NCBI GenBank assembly: GCA_963708075.1 | Contig: OY970194.1 | Span: 7,328,001 to 7,392,000, forward strand | Direction of reading: 5' to 3' | Length of the DNA: 64,000 nt | DNA from: Sedimentisphaerales bacterium | GTDB taxonomy: Bacteria > Planctomycetota > Phycisphaerae > Sedimentisphaerales > Anaerobacaceae | Shown: positions 34,211-48,077 of the stretch, piece after piece | Layout of the letters: every line of letters begins with the position of its first letter | Numbering within the stretch: position 1 is the first letter of the stretch | Made by a program: the position numbers and the translations under genes | The notes under the pieces: model-generated | What the model was told of the DNA's origin: nothing | The model's database searches: none | What the model saw: the letters and a program-made list of their open reading frames with translations, nothing else

Positions 34211-34411
34211 CAATGAATCCTCCCATGAGTCATCTACTTGTCACACACGCTGGATTGTATCCTGTGGCACCTCACCATGGAATCCTTGCTTCACCTATAA
34301 TCGTAGATTGGGCTTGCCTGTCGGGCTCGCAGCATACATACTCAGCAGATTGCCGTGCGGCAGCATGGTCACAAGTACAATCTGGAGTTTTCTGTTGAGG
34401 AGCGATGGACT

Positions 34412-35356
34412 ATGGGAAATCAGGCTTCTTCCCGACGGGAGTTTTTGAGAGACATCGCGGTGACGGCTGGTTTGGCGGCTGTGGCGCCGGCGGTTGGCGC
34501 AGTGGCGCGGGCCGCTTCGGGGAAGCTGCATGTGGCGTGCAATCAGTATTCGTGGAGCGTGTTCTATACGCGGGAGAAGAAGGACTTCAATGCGTCGCTG
34601 GATGCGGGATTTGCCGATGTGGCGGCCAGCGGGATCGATGGGTTTGAGCCGGGGGTAGGGGGGCTGGCGCAGATCGAGCAGATGGCGCCGGTGCTGAAGA
34701 AGCACGGGCTCGAGATGCGGTCGCTGTATGTTAATAGTACGCTGCACGAGGCGGGTCAGGGGGACAAGAGCATCGAGGAGGTCCTTGCCGCGGCGGCAAA
34801 GGCGAAGACCATCGGCACGCGGATCATCGTGACCAATCCGAGCCCCTTGCGCTGGGGCGGGCAGGAGAACAAGAACGATGAGCAACTCAAGATACAGGCG
34901 GAGGCCCTCAACAAGCTGGGCGCCAAGCTCAAGGCAATGGGCTTGACACTCGCCTATCACAACCACGACATGGAGCTGCGCAACGCCGCCCGCGAGTTCC
35001 ATCATATGATGGTCGGCACCGACCCCCAGAACGTCACCCTCTGTCTCGACGCCCACTGGGTCTATCGCGGGTCGGGCAACTCGCAGGTGGCCCTGTTCGA
35101 CGTGGTCAAGCTCTACGGCTCTCGCGTCACCGAATTGCACCTTCGCCAGTCGCAAAATGGCGTATGGACTGAGGCATTCGGCCCGGGCGATATCGACTAC
35201 CCACGGCTGGCCGAGTCGCTGCTCAAGGTCGGTGTCAAGCCCTTGCTGGTCCTGGAGCAAGCCATCGAGGACGGCTCACCCAACACGATGAAACCCGTAG
35301 AAGCCTTCAAGCAGAGCACTGCCTACGTCCGCCAGATCTTCGCCGCATTCGCATAG
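34412..35356 (+). CDS. Tat-exported sugar phosphate isomerase/epimerase (xylose-isomerase-like TIM barrel)
   Basis: SRREFL Tat motif; LAYHNH, LCLDAHW and GPGDID motifs. Confidence 0.82.
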   Translation: MGNQASSRREFLRDIAVTAGLAAVAPAVGAVARAASGKLHVACNQYSWSVFYTREKKDFNASLDAGFADVAASGIDGFEPGVGGLAQIEQMAPVLKKHGLEMRSLYVNSTLHEAGQGDKSIEEVLAAAAKAKTIGTRIIVTNPSPLRWGGQENKNDEQLKIQAEALNKLGAKLKAMGLTLAYHNHDMELRNAAREFHHMMVGTDPQNVTLCLDAHWVYRGSGNSQVALFDVVKLYGSRVTELHLRQSQNGVWTEAFGPGDIDYPRLAESLLKVGVKPLLVLEQAIEDGSPNTMKPVEAFKQSTAYVRQIFAAFA

Positions 35357-35647: not shown

Positions 35648-38600
35648 ATGGAATGGCGTATGAGAGCTCTGATGCCAGTGGTGTTGGCGTTCGCGCTGGC
35701 TTTGATGGGGACGTCGCGAGCATCGCTTGTGGCGCACTGGCCGCTCGATGAGACCAGTGGAACGGTTGCCGCGGACGCGGTCGGGGACAACGACGGGACG
35801 CTCTCCGGCAATCCAGTCTGGGAATCGGCGAGGGTCCGCCCCAGTGGCTCGCTGGTGTTCGATGGCAAGGATGACTACATAACGACCCGCTTTGCGCTGG
35901 ACCCGGCGAAAGGGCCGTTCAGCGCGTTTCTCTGGGCCTTGGGCAATGAGGCGGGCAAAGTCCTGATCGCCCAGCAGGACTTCGGTGGGACAGGGCAGGC
36001 GTGGCTGGTAGCAGGTACAACGAGCGCCAAGCTGGGCACGGAACTGACAGACGCCAGGGGCCAGGCCCGCGCGTTGCAGTCGGATGCCGTCCTCGCGGAT
36101 GGTCGGTGGCACCATGTCGGGGTGATCTGGGATGGGCAGTACAGACGCCTCTACCTGGACGGCGAAGAGGTGGCGGCGGACCAGGTTGCACTGGCGGATA
36201 TGAGGAGTTCGCTGGGCGGGCTGGTCATTGGGGCCTCGAAGACCCAGGACAGGTCCACGCTCTGGTCCGGCAGTATGGACGACATCCGCATCTACGATCA
36301 TGCTCTGAGTCAATCGGAGATCCGCGTGCTGGCGGGCCTCGAATCCGACCGCCAGGGCCAGCCACAGATCATGGTGGTTGCTCCCAAGACGATCTATACG
36401 GGTGCCCCGGCAGCCGTGACGGTGACAGCCATGAACGCCGACCGGTCTCCGTTGGTGGCCTCGGTGACGACCCTGCTGGCCAGCACGAAGGTCTTTGAAG
36501 GGATGACCGATGCGACCGGCCGAGTGGTCGCGAGCTTCGACACGCCGGATATCGCGCCCGGCACATACACGCTCGAAGTGCAGGTCGCCGGCATGAAAGA
36601 GTCGCTGACCGCTCAAGTGCAGGTGCGTCAGATGCCCATCGTGCTGGTCGAGACGGATAAGCCCATCTATAAGCCCGGCCAGACGATCCAGGGTCGTGCC
36701 CTGGTTCTGACGAACGAGCTTCGGCCCACGATTTCCGATGTTGCTGTCCAGATCACGGACGGCAAAGGCGTCAAGATCTTTCGCAAGGAGTTGCAGACCA
36801 ACGCATTTGGCGTTGCGCCGTTCACGCTCGACCTGGCCAGCGAGCTCAACTACGGCACGTGGAAAATCACCGCCGAGGCCGGCTCGGCCACCGGCATGGT
36901 GGATGTCCGGGTCGAGGAATACGTCCTGCCGCGATTCGAGGTCAAGGTCGAAACCGAGCGCGACTACTTCCTCGTAAACGAGCGAATCCCGGGCACCGTG
37001 CGGGCGACGTACTTCTTCGGCAAGGCCGTCGATGGCACAGTGGAGATCCACGCCAGCCGATACGTCGGCACGTGGGAAGAATATACCCGCTATACGGCTC
37101 CGCTGGTCGAAGGGGCTGCCGAGTTCGAGCTTCCCGAGGTTGGTTACGTCAGCGGCACGCCCGGTGCAGGCGGGTCGGGCAGCGTCCAACTCGATGCCAT
37201 CATCACCGACACATCGGGTCACCAGGAAAAGTCCACGAAGCTGCTCAAGATTGTCAGCTCGGGCATTGTGCATCAGCTCATTGCGGCCTCACGGTCATTT
37301 ACCCCGGGCTTGCCGTATGAGGTGTTGCTCGTGGCCGAAACCCCGGACGGCATACCTCTGTCGGTCAGTGCAGAACTGACGGCTGAATACTATTCACAGG
37401 ATGGTCGTTCGGTCCTGAAAGACAAACAATCACTATCCTTCGAGGGTTCAGCCTCGCTGACGCTGCGAGCGCCGAGGGACGCGGCCTGGGTGTACGTGCA
37501 AAGCACGGCCCGGCGTGGTAGCGAGTCGGGTCAGGCGGAGCTGTTCGTCTATGCGACGTACTCGCCCACCGACAGCTTCCTGCACCTGAGCCGGACGAGC
37601 GATGAGGCGGTGAAGGTGGGAGACGCCGTGACCATCGACGTCTTCAAAACACACGATTCGACGATCTACTATGACGTGTCTGCAAACGGGCACACCGTTT
37701 GGTCGGAAGCGACCACCGGCTCGCAGATCAGCTTCCGGGCGACACAACAGATGCTGCCTGCCGCCAAGGTCGTGGCCTATATCATCAACCCGAACAACGA
37801 GATATCCGCCGATACACTGGAGTTCAAAGTGGTTATGGATGCGGCGGCCTCGCTGACAGTGGGCTTCAACGCTGAGGAAGTCTTGCCCGGCGACCGCGTG
37901 CAGGTGTCGATAGGCGCGGGAACCGAAGCCATGGTCGGCATCGCTATCGTCGATGAATCCGTCTACGCCTTGAACGAGGGCCGGCTCAACATGCAAGCGG
38001 TTTTCGATGAGCTGGAGAAACGCTTCATGGACCCGCAGGCGGAGATCCATGCGCAGCCGTACAACTATGCGACACGCGAGGTCTTTGCCGACGCGGGCCT
38101 GCAGGTGATTACCTCGGGCGACCTCCAGGTCCCCGAGGGCCGGCAGGTGTGGGGCGGAGGCCCGATTCGCCGCGGCGACGGGACTGGTGTTGTACCGCCG
38201 GTGCCGACCGATGGCGGCTCGCTGGCCGAGGTCGCTCGCATCCGGCAGTTCTTCCCGGAGACGTGGCTGTGGACGCCGGACTTGCTCACGGACGCCAATG
38301 GTGCGGCCGTCATCGATCTGATCGCCCCGGACAGCATTACGACCTGGCGGTTGCACGCCGTCTCCACGTCTGACACCGGCCTGGGGATCGCCGAATCCTC
38401 GCTCCGCGTCTTCCAGGAATTCTTCGGCGAGCCGGACCTGCCGTACTCCGTGACGCGAGGCGAGCAGTTCCCTGTCCGCATCCAGATCTACAACTATCTC
38501 GATGAGGCACAGACCGTGCAGGTCGATCTGCGGACCGCCGAGTGGTTCAAATTGCTCGACATCGCGTCGCAGCAGGTGCGCGTGAACGCCAACTCCGTGG

Positions 38601-40315
38601 CAGCAGCCTCGTTCCTCATCGAGCCGACGAAGCTCGGCCGCAACTCGCTCGAGGTCACGCTCCGCTCCCCGCAGCGGGCAGACGGGGTCCGCAAAGAGGT
38701 CCTCGTCGAGCCCGAGGGCACGAAGCGCGAGCTGATTACGAATGGTCTGATCCGTTCCGGTGAGATCCTGCGGCTCGATGCCAACATGCCGGCGTACATC
38801 GTGCCGGACTCCGGCAAGCTGCTTCTGAACATCACGCCGAGCCTCGTCGCTCAGAGCATCAACGGTGTCGACGACCTGCTCCAGATGCCCTACGGCTGCG
38901 GCGAGCAAAACATGATCTTCTTCGCCCCCGATGTCGAGGTGCTGCGATACCTCGACGCCACGAGCCAGCTCACGCCCGAAGTTCGCGCCAAGGCCGAGCA
39001 TTTCATCACCGTCGGCTACCAGCGGGAGCTGACCTTCCGCCACAGCGACGGTTCGTTCTCCGCGTTCGGCGAGTCTGATGGCCAGCCCGGAAGCTTATGG
39101 CTTACGGCGTTCGTCCTCGACTGCTTCAGCGGCGCCCGCGAGATCACGACAGTCGATGACAGCATCCTCGCCGCAGCCGTCCAGTGGATCGCTTCCAAGC
39201 AGAAGACTGACGGCTCGTGGGACCCGGTTGGCTTCGTCATCCACAGCGACATGACGGGCGGTGTCCAGGGGAACTACACTCTTACCGCGTTTGTCACAAT
39301 CGCACTGGCGGACTATGCGTCCGCCCCGGCCGGCGTCGTGCAAGCGGCCGTGAAGTACCTCCGCGACAACATGAGCAGAATGCAGAGTGATCCGTATGCT
39401 CTGGCGATCGCGGCCCTGGCGCTGGCGAAGGCCGGGGACTCGACGGCCGATGCCGCACTGGACAACCTGCTGAGGATTGCTAAGAGCGACGCCAGCGGCA
39501 TGCACTGGGAGCCATACGCAGTAGAGACGACCGCTTATGCCGCTCTGGCATTGATGGAGAAACAGCGGCCGGAGGCGAATGAGGCCATCAAGTGGCTGTC
39601 CCTGCAGCGCAATAGCCTTGGCGGCTACGGCAACACGCAGGATACCGTGATGGGCCTCAAAGCCCTGATGACGGCGGCTCGAAACCAGAGCCGCAACGTG
39701 AACCTGACGGTGACCGTCCAGGATTCGAGGCGCGAGACGATCGCACAATTCACGGTTGACGAGAGCAACTTCGACGTCCTGCAGACTGTGGAACTGCCGC
39801 TTGAGCAGGTGATCGAGCTGGAGGCCCGGGGCACGGGCGAGGTCCGCTACCAGTTGGTCCGACGGTTCAACGTCCTGCTCAGCGATCAGACCGTGAACAA
39901 GGACATGGTTCTGGAGGTTAAGTACGATGCCGACCACGTGGAGGTCGATGACATCGTGAACGTCACTGCAACCGTCCGCTACATGGGCCTCAAGAGTTCC
40001 ACCGGCATGATGATCGTCGATGTCGGCGTGCCGACGGGCTTCGATACCGTCCGCGAGTCGCTCGACACGCTCGTTGAAGGAGGCAAAGTCACGAAGTTCG
40101 AGGTCGCCGGCCGCAAGGTGATCTTTTATCTCGACGGCCTGACGCCCCGCGAGGAGCGCTCTTTCACCTTCCAGGTCAAGGCCCGTTTCCCGGTGCGTGC
40201 CATCGTCCCGGACAGTAAGGCTTATTCTTACTACGAGCCTGACCTGCGTGCCGAGGCCATGGGTGAGGAGATCACTGTCGGTACACTGTCCCCGCAGGAG
40301 GAGCCGAAGAAGTAA
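35648..40315 (+). CDS. Secreted alpha-2-macroglobulin/thioester-containing protein with N-terminal LamG domain
   Basis: Signal peptide; LamG (LVAHWPLDE..WHHV..MDDIRIYD); ETDKPIYKPGQ, EEYVLPRFEV, FFPETWLW, DSITTW, MPYGCGEQNM; receptor-binding-like C-terminus. Confidence 0.92.
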   Translation: MEWRMRALMPVVLAFALALMGTSRASLVAHWPLDETSGTVAADAVGDNDGTLSGNPVWESARVRPSGSLVFDGKDDYITTRFALDPAKGPFSAFLWALGNEAGKVLIAQQDFGGTGQAWLVAGTTSAKLGTELTDARGQARALQSDAVLADGRWHHVGVIWDGQYRRLYLDGEEVAADQVALADMRSSLGGLVIGASKTQDRSTLWSGSMDDIRIYDHALSQSEIRVLAGLESDRQGQPQIMVVAPKTIYTGAPAAVTVTAMNADRSPLVASVTTLLASTKVFEGMTDATGRVVASFDTPDIAPGTYTLEVQVAGMKESLTAQVQVRQMPIVLVETDKPIYKPGQTIQGRALVLTNELRPTISDVAVQITDGKGVKIFRKELQTNAFGVAPFTLDLASELNYGTWKITAEAGSATGMVDVRVEEYVLPRFEVKVETERDYFLVNERIPGTVRATYFFGKAVDGTVEIHASRYVGTWEEYTRYTAPLVEGAAEFELPEVGYVSGTPGAGGSGSVQLDAIITDTSGHQEKSTKLLKIVSSGIVHQLIAASRSFTPGLPYEVLLVAETPDGIPLSVSAELTAEYYSQDGRSVLKDKQSLSFEGSASLTLRAPRDAAWVYVQSTARRGSESGQAELFVYATYSPTDSFLHLSRTSDEAVKVGDAVTIDVFKTHDSTIYYDVSANGHTVWSEATTGSQISFRATQQMLPAAKVVAYIINPNNEISADTLEFKVVMDAAASLTVGFNAEEVLPGDRVQVSIGAGTEAMVGIAIVDESVYALNEGRLNMQAVFDELEKRFMDPQAEIHAQPYNYATREVFADAGLQVITSGDLQVPEGRQVWGGGPIRRGDGTGVVPPVPTDGGSLAEVARIRQFFPETWLWTPDLLTDANGAAVIDLIAPDSITTWRLHAVSTSDTGLGIAESSLRVFQEFFGEPDLPYSVTRGEQFPVRIQIYNYLDEAQTVQVDLRTAEWFKLLDIASQQVRVNANSVAAASFLIEPTKLGRNSLEVTLRSPQRADGVRKEVLVEPEGTKRELITNGLIRSGEILRLDANMPAYIVPDSGKLLLNITPSLVAQSINGVDDLLQMPYGCGEQNMIFFAPDVEVLRYLDATSQLTPEVRAKAEHFITVGYQRELTFRHSDGSFSAFGESDGQPGSLWLTAFVLDCFSGAREITTVDDSILAAAVQWIASKQKTDGSWDPVGFVIHSDMTGGVQGNYTLTAFVTIALADYASAPAGVVQAAVKYLRDNMSRMQSDPYALAIAALALAKAGDSTADAALDNLLRIAKSDASGMHWEPYAVETTAYAALALMEKQRPEANEAIKWLSLQRNSLGGYGNTQDTVMGLKALMTAARNQSRNVNLTVTVQDSRRETIAQFTVDESNFDVLQTVELPLEQVIELEARGTGEVRYQLVRRFNVLLSDQTVNKDMVLEVKYDADHVEVDDIVNVTATVRYMGLKSSTGMMIVDVGVPTGFDTVRESLDTLVEGGKVTKFEVAGRKVIFYLDGLTPREERSFTFQVKARFPVRAIVPDSKAYSYYEPDLRAEAMGEEITVGTLSPQEEPKK

Positions 40316-40321
40316 GCTGAG

Positions 40322-42127
40322 CTATCTTGAGGCGGCGTCAAGGCCGAAGGTCTCGGCTCGTCGCACGGCTGCCATGCCTTGCGATTCGGGCGTGCCGGCA
40401 TTGTAGTCCACGACCACGCCGTCCACGAGCATCCTGCTGCCATCGCGGGTCACGATGCCCCCGGCAGGGGTCAGCAGGATCAATGCGGCTGTATCCGGCC
40501 GCAGTTCCAGCGATGTTCTGCCACTGATTCGCTTGCGCACGAATGAATGTTGAGTCGTATCGTAGAGGTCCACCGGCCGGCTGCCTGCGTCCATGTGGAT
40601 TTCCCGCCTCTCATTATAAGGATTGTAGTAGAGATACGTCGGGTACGCTTCCTCGTGGAAGAAATCTGTCTTGAGGCAGTTCAACTGAAGGATTCTCTCG
40701 TCATCCGTCCGCTCCACGACGGCCGCCATCAGGCCGACGTGGCTGGAGCCGTACAGGGAGAGATCGGAAACGTACTTATGCCTGCCCCATCGGCCGCCGA
40801 GCGGGTCGCCGCACGCGCAGGGAATCTTGTCGGCGTCCTGCGGCCGCAGGCCGATGCGGCGCAGGCCCTCGTAGGCAATCACATCTCGCGAGAACTCCCG
40901 CTGGTCATAGCAGGTCTGGTTCTCAGGCGGCAGGCTGTCGGTATAGAACAGGCGGGTGGCGTTGGCGGCGTTGAGCAGCAGCTTGCCGACCGCCCGGGCA
41001 TATCTTGCGTCGTATCGCGGCAGGGGCGCCAGTGCGGCGACTAACTCGAATGTGTTCATGGCAAAGGCGTATCCGCCGCCGTCGGTGATGCTGCCCTGCA
41101 GTCCGCTGACATCGTAGCCGCCCCAGTGGCCGACGATGACTCCCCATCCCGGCCGGCATGCGTTGTTGCCGTCGAGGCACCGGTTGAGCAGTTGAGTTAC
41201 ATCATAGTCGCAGCCTTGTTCCGCATTCATCCTCGCCGCCAGCGTCACGCCGTAAGGCAGCAGGACCTCGTAAAACGTACTGCGGCCGAAGTCATCCAGC
41301 GCATCCATGGCCCGGCGAGCGGCGTCGATGTATTTCATTTCGCCGGACTTGGCCCCGGCCATATACTCGATCCACGCCACGCCGGAAGTCGCATCGCCTT
41401 CCCGCCATCGGCCGTTGAACACCGGCTCATGACGGACGAAGTCATACCCTGTGTACCACTGGCCCTCCTCCAACGCCGGCACAAGCTCCGCCACGGAATC
41501 CGCAGAACGCCGCATGTATTCATCGAGCCGGCCGTGATCCGGGTAGCAGTCGGCGAGCATGAACGCGAGCATGTTGGGGAACAGGAAATACCACATGGAG
41601 CCCGTGCCCGGCAACAGACTTGCATTGTTCGCAAAGATATCCAATCCGCCTCGGTCTTTGGGCGAGAAGTATCTCTCGCACATACGAACATAGTCATGCC
41701 CATCTTGATTTCGCTTATCGATGCCGACGAGGCGGGCGCCGACGACCGCCGCGAGGCAGTTCACAGCCTCATGCTGGCCGGGGTTCACCGCCGGTCCCTG
41801 TCGCGGATCGCCGGCGACCGTGTAGAGCCCGAACCCCTCGATGTTGCTGGTAAGGCGAGTACGGTCCTCCCAGATCAGCGGGAGAAATCGGCCTCGCGCA
41901 CCGCGGTCGAAGACCAGGGCATCATAGTCTCGCGCGACCTGTTTCCAATCCCGCATCTTGAACGGCCGGGGCATATTCGGCATCTGCTCGACGCGTGCGA
42001 TGTGGACCTGCGGCCGGGCCTCGAAAGCCCGCGCCTCCACAGCATGCAGGATGGAGCTTGCCCCACCGATTCCGTCGGATTTTGGTGGGGCAAGCCCCAC
42101 CCTACGATTCCCGGCCCCTGTCGTCAT
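40322..42127 (-). CDS. Conserved hypothetical protein, possibly an (alpha/alpha)-barrel carbohydrate-active enzyme; start uncertain
   Basis: Long ORF with host-like codon use, aromatic/Trp-rich, co-directional with the upstream catabolic genes. Confidence 0.6.
   Translation of the reverse strand: MTTGAGNRRVGLAPPKSDGIGGASSILHAVEARAFEARPQVHIARVEQMPNMPRPFKMRDWKQVARDYDALVFDRGARGRFLPLIWEDRTRLTSNIEGFGLYTVAGDPRQGPAVNPGQHEAVNCLAAVVGARLVGIDKRNQDGHDYVRMCERYFSPKDRGGLDIFANNASLLPGTGSMWYFLFPNMLAFMLADCYPDHGRLDEYMRRSADSVAELVPALEEGQWYTGYDFVRHEPVFNGRWREGDATSGVAWIEYMAGAKSGEMKYIDAARRAMDALDDFGRSTFYEVLLPYGVTLAARMNAEQGCDYDVTQLLNRCLDGNNACRPGWGVIVGHWGGYDVSGLQGSITDGGGYAFAMNTFELVAALAPLPRYDARYARAVGKLLLNAANATRLFYTDSLPPENQTCYDQREFSRDVIAYEGLRRIGLRPQDADKIPCACGDPLGGRWGRHKYVSDLSLYGSSHVGLMAAVVERTDDERILQLNCLKTDFFHEEAYPTYLYYNPYNERREIHMDAGSRPVDLYDTTQHSFVRKRISGRTSLELRPDTAALILLTPAGGIVTRDGSRMLVDGVVVDYNAGTPESQGMAAVRRAETFGLDAASR
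42046..42105. repeat. Inverted doublet of GTAG-type REPs (REPIN-like)
   Basis: GCAGGATGGAGCTTGCCCCACC..16 nt..GGTGGGGCAAGCCCCACCCTAC; 22-bp arms with 3 mismatches. Confidence 0.75.
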
Positions 42128-42251
42128 AGCCCCACGCCGCCCCAACCACGCGCCGTCTCGCGTCCGACTCGACACGCCCGAGCCGCCGGAAGATCACTGC
42201 GCAGCTATTCCCCCTTATCGGTCCCGCGGGCTTTTGGGCATGAGCCTTGTG

Positions 42252-45659: not shown

Positions 45660-48077
45660 CTATTCGCTCGTTTTGAGGGCGAACGCGCGGATAGGGTTTA
45701 TCTCGGTGATCATCCGAATCGTTGCAGCATCCACGCCGGCATCGCTGAGCTTCGGAATGAATGCGTCGATCAGGTACGTGTAGGATCGCTGCGTTCCACC
45801 GTTGGGCTGGCCCGGCTGGTACCATCCAGCGTCGTGCGAGAGCAGGATGCGGTCGCCATAGCCGGCGGCGAGCAGGTCCTTGATGGCCGTGATAAGCGTG
45901 GAATCCTGCCCGGGATTCGAGCCGAGGGAGTCAAACTCGACAAATACGCCGCGTGCGGCCAGTTGGCGCTGCATGTCGCGGTTGTTCTCGCTTTGGGCAT
46001 GGACCCAGATGAATCGGATCGCCGGGTCGATGGATTGCAGGATCGCAATCTGCCTGGATGCATTGCTGCTGACCGGCGTGTGGCTGGCGACGGCGGCACC
46101 CGTTTCGCTCGCGGCGCGGCCGGCGGCTCGCAGGAATTTCTCCTCCAGCGGGGTCATGGCGCCGCTGCCCGTGGCGGTTTTGATGAAGCCGGCCTTGATG
46201 CCTGTGCTCTCGATGCCCTCGCGAATCTCACGAATGAACAGAGTGGTCAATTCATCCTCGCTCATGTTCCGGTGCTCCGGCGGGGCGAAATTGTCCCGGC
46301 CGTACACGCCCGTCGGCACCACCACGGGCAACGCCGACTCCCGCGCCACCTGATCAATGATGGTCACGTTTCGGCCTACGCCGATGCTGCTGCACTCGAT
46401 CAGGACGCCCACACCCTTCTCGCGAGCGGCCATAAGCCATGGCTTCATGATGCGCACGACATCTGCGGGGTTGGCCTGGCCGTAGCCGGCTACGGTGGGA
46501 CCGCGCAAATCGGTGAAGATATGCTCGTGGGGCAGAATGACGCCCAGCCCCTCGGCGAGCAGGGGACCCTGGGTCGTGATGAACTGCCATCGCGTGTCGG
46601 ACTTGCTCGCCTCAATGGTGCCACCATAAACGCCCATGTTGGCCCGACTGCCGTTGGGCAGGGGCTCATCGTCGAATGCCAGCACCGGGTTTCCGGCGTC
46701 GATGCAGGGACTGGTCACCGCAACCTGCACCCATGCCTGGGTCGCAGGGTCCCATCGGCCCGCGCGCGACTTCAGATGGTAGTCGCCAGGCACGAAGAGA
46801 TCGTCGTTGGGGTCGTCCGGCGTGTCATTGGCGTCCCAGTATCCTGCATCGGCGAAGCAGGGGTCGGCATCGATGTTGCCCGGTCCCCAGGTCATCGTTC
46901 GCCTCGGATCGCTGACGGTCGACTTGCCGCCCACCACATCCGTGTACTGAATCATCAGAGCGGCATAGCCGTTCGATATCTCATTGCCGTCGTTGGCCAG
47001 GATGCAGCTATCCACGCGGATCGACGGAGGCGGCGACCCCCGGCCGGGACGCGCAGAGTTGTCTGACAGGAACTGACCCTCTGGGGCGGTATTACCCGCC
47101 GCCGTACAGTTCTGCACCTTCGCAGACCCGTTCTCGTTGTAGAGTACCCCGCCGCCTTTACTTGCGGCATTGCCGACCGCCAGGCAATTCACCATTTCCA
47201 CGCGCCCGAAGCTGGTGCTGTGGATACATCCACCCCACGTCGCTTGATTGCCTCGGAATACGCAACCTGTCAGAACTGCCTTGCCTCTAAGCATAATGGC
47301 CCCGCCCTGTCCTACAGGGAGCCTACTGTAGAGTCCCGCCACGTTCCTCTCAAATGTACAGCCCGTAAGCAGCACATCCTCCTCCAGTTGATCGGCAGAG
47401 AATTCCTCTGCCAGTGCTCCTCCTCCGGATGCTGCGAAGTTGGCTTTGAATACGCAGTCACGGATAGTGATGCCGGCTCCCATGACTATCGCTCCGCCGC
47501 CAAGTGGCACATCCGGGTCAAAGCCATCCTCGAGAGGCACAACCCAGGAATGGGCATGACCACCGGTGATTGTCATGCCGTCCAGGAGAGCAGACCCGGT
47601 GATGGCAACCACATGTTGGGAATTGTCCATCCGCGTCGGCTCATGCATCAGCTTGTTGGGATCGAGGACGTCCACATCGTTGCCCGCCAGGTCGCCGGAG
47701 AGGATCGTCGGGTATGCGACGACATCCCGAAGATTCGGGTCGGCTGCCCCGACTCCGGCGTAGCTGCCTGCCACGTGGACCCCCTGGGTGACAACAAACG
47801 CCGTTTGACGGTCGTCGCTGCCCTCAGGGTTTGCGTTGTTCTGATCCGGCTTGTACGTTCCCTGGGCCACCCGAACTTCCAGCGGCCAGTCCGACGACCT
47901 CAGCATCAGGGGAACAAGGGCGTCCTGCAAATGCCTGTAGGCCGTGGCCCACGACCTGCCATTCCCGCCCGCCGGTGCATCGTCATCGACATAAATAACC
48001 GGATCGAGTGCCCACACCGGCATTGTCCCTGCCAGGATCAGTCCCAGCACGACCATGTAAATGTATGTGTGTTTCAT
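45660..48077 (-). CDS. Secreted beta-helix protein fused to a phosphotriesterase-family amidohydrolase domain
   Basis: Signal peptide; IYVDDDA..GRSWATAY..LQDAL beta-helix; C-terminal PHEH, GFIK, ASH, WVH and LLSHD. Confidence 0.82.
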   Translation of the reverse strand: MKHTYIYMVVLGLILAGTMPVWALDPVIYVDDDAPAGGNGRSWATAYRHLQDALVPLMLRSSDWPLEVRVAQGTYKPDQNNANPEGSDDRQTAFVVTQGVHVAGSYAGVGAADPNLRDVVAYPTILSGDLAGNDVDVLDPNKLMHEPTRMDNSQHVVAITGSALLDGMTITGGHAHSWVVPLEDGFDPDVPLGGGAIVMGAGITIRDCVFKANFAASGGGALAEEFSADQLEEDVLLTGCTFERNVAGLYSRLPVGQGGAIMLRGKAVLTGCVFRGNQATWGGCIHSTSFGRVEMVNCLAVGNAASKGGGVLYNENGSAKVQNCTAAGNTAPEGQFLSDNSARPGRGSPPPSIRVDSCILANDGNEISNGYAALMIQYTDVVGGKSTVSDPRRTMTWGPGNIDADPCFADAGYWDANDTPDDPNDDLFVPGDYHLKSRAGRWDPATQAWVQVAVTSPCIDAGNPVLAFDDEPLPNGSRANMGVYGGTIEASKSDTRWQFITTQGPLLAEGLGVILPHEHIFTDLRGPTVAGYGQANPADVVRIMKPWLMAAREKGVGVLIECSSIGVGRNVTIIDQVARESALPVVVPTGVYGRDNFAPPEHRNMSEDELTTLFIREIREGIESTGIKAGFIKTATGSGAMTPLEEKFLRAAGRAASETGAAVASHTPVSSNASRQIAILQSIDPAIRFIWVHAQSENNRDMQRQLAARGVFVEFDSLGSNPGQDSTLITAIKDLLAAGYGDRILLSHDAGWYQPGQPNGGTQRSYTYLIDAFIPKLSDAGVDAATIRMITEINPIRAFALKTSE

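Follow-up and report, generated by a model that had tools for sequence, protein, structure and literature searches.

The question raised by this locus is what a thioester protein of animal type, fused to a LamG domain, does in a bacterium. The gene lies at 35648..40315 (+) of the window, by which we mean the whole analysed stretch of 64,000 nucleotides from Sedimentisphaerales bacterium (contig OY970194.1, positions 7,328,001 to 7,392,000). A previous reading made from the sequence alone proposed a complement-like protein, in which a carbohydrate-recognition module is coupled to a protease-triggered covalent tagger. In our analysis the protein has the domain order MG1–6 with a bait insert, MG7, CUB, TED and MG8, and it is the LamG-fused form of a known, database-annotated family on which no experimental work was found. 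By analogy with characterized relatives, and with a probability of roughly 0.6, we read it as a secreted, probably monomeric, protease-triggered covalent trap, comparable to A2ML1 or CD109 and tethered by its LamG domain.

Architecture of the 1555-residue protein

The gene is one intron-free open reading frame (ORF) of 1555 aa, according to the ORF list and the translation. The motifs quoted in the sequence-only reading, namely MPYGCGEQNM, GFVIHSDM, RQFFPETWLW, DLPYSVTRGE, GYQRELTFRHSDGSFSAFG, LWLTAFV and GMMIVDVGVPTGF...YSYYEP, are all present in this translation, far beyond chance. The Cys and His codons that it placed at 38897 and 39242, 115 residues apart, correspond to Cys1084 and His1199.

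Pfam matches follow the order MG2, MG3, A2M_BRD, A2M, TED_complement and A2M_recep, which is the order of animal-type proteins. Searching the full protein against PDB with phmmer returned CD109 (3.3e-125), human A2M (8.4e-124), A2ML1 (1.4e-114), C3 (6.9e-98) and TEP1 (1.3e-86), with alignments spanning residues 326-1535 for CD109 and 296-1536 for TEP1, and no bacterial A2M chain was among the 60 matches listed of 80. When the thioester domain was searched alone, all 51 of 51 PDB matches were animal proteins. The score to E. coli YfhM, for which the reference was taken from the K-12 record where it adjoins pbpC, was 38 bits at 21% identity and covered the TED only, against 333 bits and 30% identity over 925 residues for fish A2ML1. 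None of bMG3, bMG5, bMG6 and bMG10, the classical bacterial set, was matched by Pfam in the protein, and all four were found in the other A2M of the same genome. The Pfam set, the PDB relatives, the thioester-domain alignments and the YfhM score together bear out the proposal that the architecture is of animal type and not of YfhM type. Nesting within the classical bacterial A2Ms, the case named beforehand as telling against that proposal, was examined too, and the protein stands far from the YfhM type both by the 38-bit score and in a tree rooted on YfhM-type proteins.

The sequence PYGCGEQNM occupies residues 1081-1089 and contains the Cys-Gly-Glu-Gln of a thioester site. Across the family alignment the Cys and the Gln are kept in 121/121 sequences and the His in 118/121. 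In the phmmer alignments vgfvIHsdmtgg of our protein pairs with grvIHselqgg of CD109 and vgnllHtamkgg of A2ML1, whereas human A2M has Asn in sgsllNnaikgg, so the His does stand at the catalytic position, as had been suggested. A His about 115 residues after the Cys, where human A2M has Asn, places the protein in the His-type subgroup of C3, C4B, CD109 and A2ML1. We take the aligned position to be that of the catalytic His of C3 and C4B.

The segment at aa 801-862, an insert in MG6, is the most divergent part of the core. In the homologue alignment its identity to our protein is 0.32-0.42 with indels, while its flanks reach 0.6-0.88. By this variability between conserved flanks the segment qualifies as the exposed variable bait of the A2M/TEP superfamily, and its cleavage is predicted. 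No anaphylatoxin domain and no C-terminal C345C/NTR domain, which mark complement C3/C4/C5, were matched by Pfam in the 1555-aa protein. The chain stops 18 residues past MG8, and Pfam together with a C-terminal comparison with homologues showed C345C, dockerin and anchor all to be absent.

The N-terminus is of the Sec type by eye and, as first described, has no lipobox: residues 1-1083 are free of Cys, the first Cys of the protein being residue 1084, so that it departs from the classical YfhM/ECAM proteins in this respect. Only two Cys, 1084 and 1159, occur in the whole protein, and disulphide-linked oligomers are therefore not expected. The fusion of LamG to the N-terminus, also part of the sequence-only reading, is seen in Pfam, in an AlphaFold2 model and in Foldseek. 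LamG-free homologues begin at the position of MG1. NCBIfam holds no model for the 1555-aa protein.

A prokaryotic clade and its animal counterparts

The protein is not an isolated case. It belongs to a large and annotated prokaryotic clade. A search of 90%-cluster proteins found 921 members among 8000 candidates scored, and with one genome per species 532 loci carry a relative bearing the PYGCGEQN pattern, in Phycisphaerae, Methanosarcinales, Omnitrophota and others. Database names of clade members are "alpha-2-macroglobulin family protein" or "CD109 antigen". LamG-fused relatives make up 24/120 of the matches listed (1555-1822 aa, 56-89% identity). Bacterial forms without the fusion (1316-1342 aa; Phycisphaerales, Sedimentisphaerales and Anaerobaca lacustris) align over 84% of our protein at 69-72% identity. 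Archaeal forms (ANME-2, Methanosarcinaceae, Methanococcoides burtonii) reach about 49% identity to it and Omnitrophota forms about 46-47%.

When 50%-cluster representatives were searched exhaustively, 14,697 matches had E<=1e-3 and 3,136 of these had E<=1e-30. The motif around the Cys divides the best 150 representatives three ways: GCGEQNM, shared by our clade and animals, a large prokaryotic GCFEQTS group, and VSGCGEQS, of which one checked member is named Thermoplasmatota. As a separate observation, 5/6 tested GCFEQTS members (P0160, P0163, P0193, P0241 and P0258) combine an N-terminal zf-HC2 anti-sigma-factor zinc finger with a full TED_complement/A2M_recep body, a fusion that might act as an anti-sigma factor able to sense proteases.

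Archaeal A2M homologues with CxEQ have been described by Makarova et al. in 2021, in a section that calls those of Methanomicrobia bacterial-like (PMC8416519). In the passages drawn on here, two 2026 reviews give as bacterial A2Ms only the YfhM type of Gram-negative bacteria, with MG0 and NIE (PMC13069473, PMC12939704). A full-text literature search on macroglobulin in combination with Planctomycetes or Phycisphaerae returned no relevant work.

The relation to the animal proteins was addressed with a tree of 58 rows and 1388 columns (LG+G4, quick search), rooted on two YfhM-type proteins. Animals were represented by three rows, one a mosquito TEP and the other two A2M-like fish proteins that had been excised from over-long gene models. 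A profile search built from mosquito TEP and fish A2M listed 120 matches, of which the named ones were nearly all dipteran TEP/CD109, with 2 fish PZP and no deep animal lineages. The 53 prokaryotic rows of the TED_complement type formed one group, with a Shimodaira-Hasegawa-like approximate likelihood ratio (SH-aLRT) support of 99, and the three animal rows another (SH-aLRT 91). Our protein clustered with the un-fused P0021 and P0033 (SH-aLRT 100). In approximately unbiased (AU) tests, a grouping of the three animal rows with the core clade of our protein was not rejected (p 0.09), and a grouping of prokaryotes with fish A2M, leaving insect TEP outside, lay 15.5 log-likelihood units above the free quick tree (p 0.70). 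With such thin animal sampling, the AU tests leave open where the prokaryotic clade belongs relative to the animal proteins.

A recent acquisition from an animal, or an animal TEP/CD109 that contaminates the assembly or was mis-binned, might be argued from the best solved relatives, which are all animal proteins, and from the AU test that did not reject prokaryotes together with fish A2M. We regard it as very improbable. The gene has a guanine-plus-cytosine (GC) content of 0.62-0.63, equal to that of its flanks, so the argument against contamination from host-like composition is sound; moreover, the window lies within a single 7.5-Mb contig, and five related bacterial loci are syntenic with it. 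On these grounds, and with no introns in the gene, contaminating animal DNA was excluded. Our protein also has 2 Cys where the fish proteins have 31-42, and its identity to fish A2ML1 is 30%, against 46-89% for the 120 prokaryotic proteins listed. Recent animal transfer is excluded, and an ancient transfer, in either direction, is possible.

Trap, tagger or envelope guard

A2ML1, CD109 and E. coli ECAM are monomeric inhibitors that act by bait cleavage and covalent thioester capture. A trap of this kind is suggested for our protein by its best solved relatives, CD109, A2M and A2ML1, which are of protease-inhibitor type, and by the conservation pattern, with invariant Cys and Gln, a nearly invariant His, and a bait that is the most variable part of a core otherwise 60-88% conserved. 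The presence of two Cys only, the lability of the end modules and the lack of a conserved partner gene would also suit a trap. In the proposed mechanism, a foreign protease would cut the exposed hypervariable bait (aa about 801-862), which would free the CUB-TED-MG8 body and uncover the Cys1084-Gln1087 thioester. His1199 would then attack the thioester to form an acyl-imidazole, briefly hyper-reactive, that would couple to amines or hydroxyls within a short radius, mostly on the attacking protease, and the bound protease would be covalently held and sterically blocked. LamG would be an accessory tether, most likely to a surface rich in glycans, which could be the envelope or matrix of the cell itself or a polysaccharide substrate. 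It would stand in for the dockerin-like tails, membrane anchors and lipoboxes of sister proteins. Thioester formation, triggering by protease, inhibition and the binding partner of LamG are all predicted here by homology.

The same chemistry invites the rival reading first proposed for this gene, in which LamG would recognize a foreign carbohydrate, a foreign or own protease would activate the thioester, and the His chemistry would fix the protein to surface hydroxyls. Such a protein would mark, glue or block a surface and would be an opsonin or adhesin rather than an inhibitor. The His at the C3/C4B/CD109 position agrees with this, but the inhibitors A2ML1 and CD109 have it too. A2ML1, a monomer, inhibits by covalent conjugation; its nearby His attacks the nascent thioester, and the acyl-imidazole so formed reacts with amines and hydroxyls, "similarly to C3 and C4B" in the wording of the relevant passage (PMC9156758). 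The His had been offered as a pointer to a complement-like role, and in this it fails, as it does not discriminate a trap from a complement-like tagger. TEP1-like proteins of the same build act as complement-like factors according to part of the same source (PMC9156758), which is in favor of tagging. Against it, our protein lacks both the anaphylatoxin domain and C345C, no gene for a partner protease or a receptor was found nearby, and no downstream reader of such a tag is known in bacteria.

Much then depends on LamG. A single-sequence AlphaFold model of residues 25-336 had a predicted local distance difference test (pLDDT) score of 36 and was discarded in favor of a 24-row alignment, from which AlphaFold2 modelled the N-terminal 312 residues at pLDDT 88 as a jelly-roll, a short low-confidence linker and the MG1 sandwich. 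Foldseek matched the LamG model to ConA-like domains with probability 1.00, including domain 4 of the GH43 arabinanase AbnA (template modelling score 0.78 on the target, root-mean-square deviation 3.3), the pentraxin domain of PTX3 (22% identity) and trans-sialidase lectin domains. Matches to the jelly-roll in the binding regions of clostridial neurotoxins spanned two domains and had a high root-mean-square deviation. With a score over the curated cut-off and a jelly-roll fold, the domain falls in the LamG / ConA-like superfamily, and the model supports a lectin-like fold but nothing more specific.

The genome contains 102 Pfam Laminin_G_3 matches, 98 of them over the cut-off, so that LamG is a mass-produced module of the secreted proteins of this organism. 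Its nearest LamG paralogues in the genome, at 37-45% identity, are C-terminal modules on proteins of about 520-870 aa, and LamG domains of more distant A2M fusions are 39-51% identical, about as close as its own paralogues. A tree of 82 bacterial and archaeal rows, built on the core only, has LamG in 25 rows and requires at least 8 gains or losses of it, of which 6 are forced by well-supported branches. LamG is fixed in the clade of 7 sequences that includes our protein. The LamG domain tree itself was a polytomy, compatible with one or two origins of the fusion. In P0039, sister to the LamG-bearing P0013, what appear by eye to be the first residues of a deleted LamG remain. Other clade members end in dockerin-like tails of about 55 aa, in tails of about 146 aa with Pfam dockerin and TSP3, in tails of about 214 aa or in C-terminal transmembrane anchors, and begin with lipobox-like N-termini in archaea or with an unrelated region of about 360 aa in Omnitrophota. 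Dockerin and TSP3 are precomputed Pfam matches here, while the shorter dockerin-like tails, the transmembrane anchors and the lipobox-like N-termini were recognized by eye. Since LamG is swapped for other end modules in relatives with the same core, it is one among several exchangeable modules at the ends of a core that is itself highly conserved. In a Phycisphaerales metagenome-assembled genome (MAG), a 1198-aa protein with Laminin_G_3, CARDB and sortilin-like domains is encoded just upstream of an un-fused A2M orthologue (L004:3856-7449, +); we record this as an observation of its own.

These results divide the sequence-only reading. Carbohydrate recognition by LamG retains the lectin-like fold but loses the status of a dedicated lectin arm, given the 102 genome matches and the repeated changes in the tree. 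Of the complement-like lectin and covalent tagger, the build, the His and the LamG were all seen, and none of them supports it specifically, with the His found in inhibitors and LamG being generic. The likeness of the fold to lectin-type domains such as PTX3, and the fixation of LamG within its small clade, keep a tagging function in view; the replacement of this generic module by dockerin, anchors or nothing in close relatives reduces its appeal, and we hold it to be unlikely. A narrower version would be a 'lectin pathway' in one polypeptide, in which LamG docks on a specific glycan, of a competitor surface or of the cell's own sheath, and a bait cut by any protease then fires the His-assisted thioester onto nearby sugar hydroxyls. 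This is a speculation to which we give slightly less credence still. If it were true, the bacterium would coat a surface with covalently attached macroglobulin as a shield or a mark, which would be a prokaryotic forerunner of complement opsonization and would fit the prokaryotic clade as source, not recipient, of the animal TEP family.

A third function is suggested by the classical bacterial A2Ms. The genome has one of its own, a YfhM-type protein of 1779 aa, about 185 kb from the gene studied here, and its locus (7175267-7182713; L003:5268-12714) lies about 148 kb before the window start. This protein scores 317 bits against E. coli YfhM, and an ORF overlapping the 3' end of its gene encodes Transgly and Transpeptidase domains (PBP1C-like). 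Hence the same genome has both kinds of A2M, YfhM-type and animal-type. Our protein might, as an equivalent of YfhM/ECAM, stay in the periplasm and shield the machinery of wall synthesis upon a breach of the outer barrier, with LamG on peptidoglycan or another envelope glycan. In favor of this, its Sec signal peptide carries no further sorting signal, and classical bacterial A2Ms act in this way according to part of one review (PMC12939704). However, a YfhM-type A2M with intact CxEQ, followed by a transglycosylase/transpeptidase penicillin-binding protein (PBP), is already present. No PBP neighbors the gene of our type at any of 23 loci, and sister proteins bear dockerin, PKD or transmembrane-anchor modules that point outward. 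An envelope guard thus seems to us about as unlikely as the tagger.

Several points weigh against the covalent trap as well. No biochemistry was found in the literature for any member of the clade, and the architecture of a protein does not determine what it does. Insect TEPs are built alike, and in the part of PMC9156758 that treats them protease inhibition is not demonstrated for them. The fold matches of the modelled LamG domain look generic and point to no particular ligand, and periplasm, surface and medium are all possible end locations. Moreover, a search of 40 sampled relatives with the core alone, 23 of them from the same genus, turned up no ortholog, and 2/40 have a 34% type. A class-wide sample of 300 other genomes, searched with the C-terminal 696 aa, contained 1 ortholog (73% identity, un-fused, same family) and 3 genomes with 33-36% types. 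Because no ortholog was found in the 40 relatives searched and one was found in 1/300 of the class sample, the protein does not serve a core envelope function. This sparse spread, together with the 49% identity between bacterial and archaeal forms, would fit repeated horizontal transfer among sediment anaerobes.

Locus and known systems

Coordinates of the gene, its parts and its neighbors are collected in Table 1. A GGAG lies 8-12 nt upstream of the ATG of the thioester-protein gene, and promoter and terminator scans around the gene gave results at chance level.

Table 1. Features of the thioester-protein gene, its neighbors in the window and the second A2M of the genome
Feature	Position	Strand	Evidence
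Signal peptide, aa 1-25	35648..35722	+	MEWRMRALMPVVLAFALALMGTSRA followed by SLVAHW in translation, by eye; likely cleavage after SRA; Cys-free
LamG / ConA-like jelly-roll, aa 26-230 (Pfam Laminin_G_3 aa 72-225)	35723..36337	+	Pfam 5.1e-21, 75.8 bits vs cut-off 27.6; AlphaFold2 pLDDT 88
MG1, first macroglobulin beta-sandwich, aa 243-330	36374..36637	+	Weak Pfam MG4-model match aa 251-326; AlphaFold2 beta-sandwich, pLDDT about 90
MG2 to MG6 with bait-region domain	36647..37972	+	Pfam MG2 aa 334-421 (2.5e-18), MG3 aa 424-480 (4.1e-12), A2M_BRD aa 647-775 (6.1e-20)
Bait-like hypervariable segment, aa 801-862	38048..38233	+	Holds GGGPIRRGDGTG, ends at conserved RxRQFFPETW; lowest conservation in core
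Pfam A2M domain (MG7 region), aa 872-961	38261..38530	+	Pfam 2.8e-28
Thioester domain TED_complement, aa 1066-1341	38843..39670	+	Pfam 4.8e-76
Thioester residues Cys1084, Gln1087	38897-38899, 38906-38908	+	Translation, alignments
Catalytic-position His1199	39242-39244	+	Translation, alignments
MG8 / receptor-binding-type domain A2M_recep, aa 1451-1537	39998..40258	+	Pfam 2e-17
Xylose-isomerase-like TIM barrel (AP_endonuc_2)	34355..35356	+	Pfam 4.4e-19; 291 bp before thioester-protein gene, same strand
Convergent 617-aa ORF	40322-42175	-	No Pfam match at E<=0.001; stops 6 bp apart from A2M gene
Classical YfhM-type A2M, 1779 aa	G000:C1:7175267-7180606		bMG3, bMG5, bMG6, bMG10; intact PYGCVEQTS (CxEQ)

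The TIM-barrel gene stands directly upstream of A2M in five related loci (L006, L010, L026, L029 and L032; tblastn, 62-66% identity), and in L006, L010, L026 and L032 the whole order DUF5060-hydrolase (-) / TIM (+) / A2M (+) is kept. L029 keeps the TIM-A2M pair and gave no DUF5060 match by tblastn. Across the syntenic loci the A2M core is the best conserved element (68-70%, against 59-60% for the DUF5060-hydrolase and 62-66% for the TIM barrel). As gene order is kept at un-fused loci, LamG has been gained or lost in place. The convergent 617-aa ORF was not found by tblastn beside the A2M gene in any related locus. The absence of an adjacent pbp1C, noted at the outset, is confirmed for the window, whose neighboring genes show no transglycosylase/PBP match. 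Among 92 neighbor proteins scanned from 23 loci there was no match to the Transgly family, and no partner gene was common to the 23 loci.

Two further observations concern surrounding genes. At 45660-48077 (-) the window encodes an unusual fusion protein of 805 aa, in which the C-terminal part is a phosphotriesterase-family domain, combined with a right-handed beta-helix and a disaggregatase-related segment. In a Hydrogenedentota MAG, a group II intron reverse transcriptase/maturase is encoded directly downstream of an A2M orthologue (L035:12786-14342, +).

The prokaryotic clade of our protein shares its domain order and thioester motif with the animal proteins, has a His of the C3/CD109 type and is distinct from the reviewed YfhM type. 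Many microbes already have annotated members of the protein family; what is new is the addition of LamG and the bearing of the clade on the origin of the animal proteins. The clade could be used to test the direction of descent between prokaryotes and the animal TEP, A2M and complement proteins, which the trees here did not settle. Moreover, one genome with a classical A2M-PBP pair and an animal-type A2M is a natural system for comparing both kinds.

Among known proteins, the un-fused prokaryotic orthologues of Anaerobaca lacustris (P0033), a Phycisphaerales MAG (P0021) and Methanococcoides burtonii (P0100) have the same motifs and the same His. Their core is 69-72% identical to ours in bacteria and 49% in archaea; they differ in having no LamG, and the archaeal N-termini are lipobox-like. 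With E. coli YfhM/ECAM and the YfhM-type A2M of its own genome, our protein shares the superfamily, the CxEQ thioester, MG domains and a bait, whereas bMG3/bMG5/bMG6/bMG10, the lipobox (in E. coli) and the pbp1C-type neighbor belong to the classical type only. Complement C3 and C4B share with it the TED, the thioester, the His position and MG8, but our protein has neither anaphylatoxin domain nor C345C, and its bait is a disordered variable segment. The comparison with human CD109 (PDB 8s3o, 9fx2) and A2ML1 (7q1y), monomeric thioester protease inhibitors, covers the MG2-MG8 order, the PYGCGEQNM-type motif, the His at the catalytic position, the bait insert and a conserved R..FPETW segment after the bait. 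Unlike CD109 and A2ML1, our protein is prokaryotic, about 30% identical to them, and carries an N-terminal LamG; it has no glycosylphosphatidylinositol anchor and, with two Cys in all, no glycosylation or disulphide framework.

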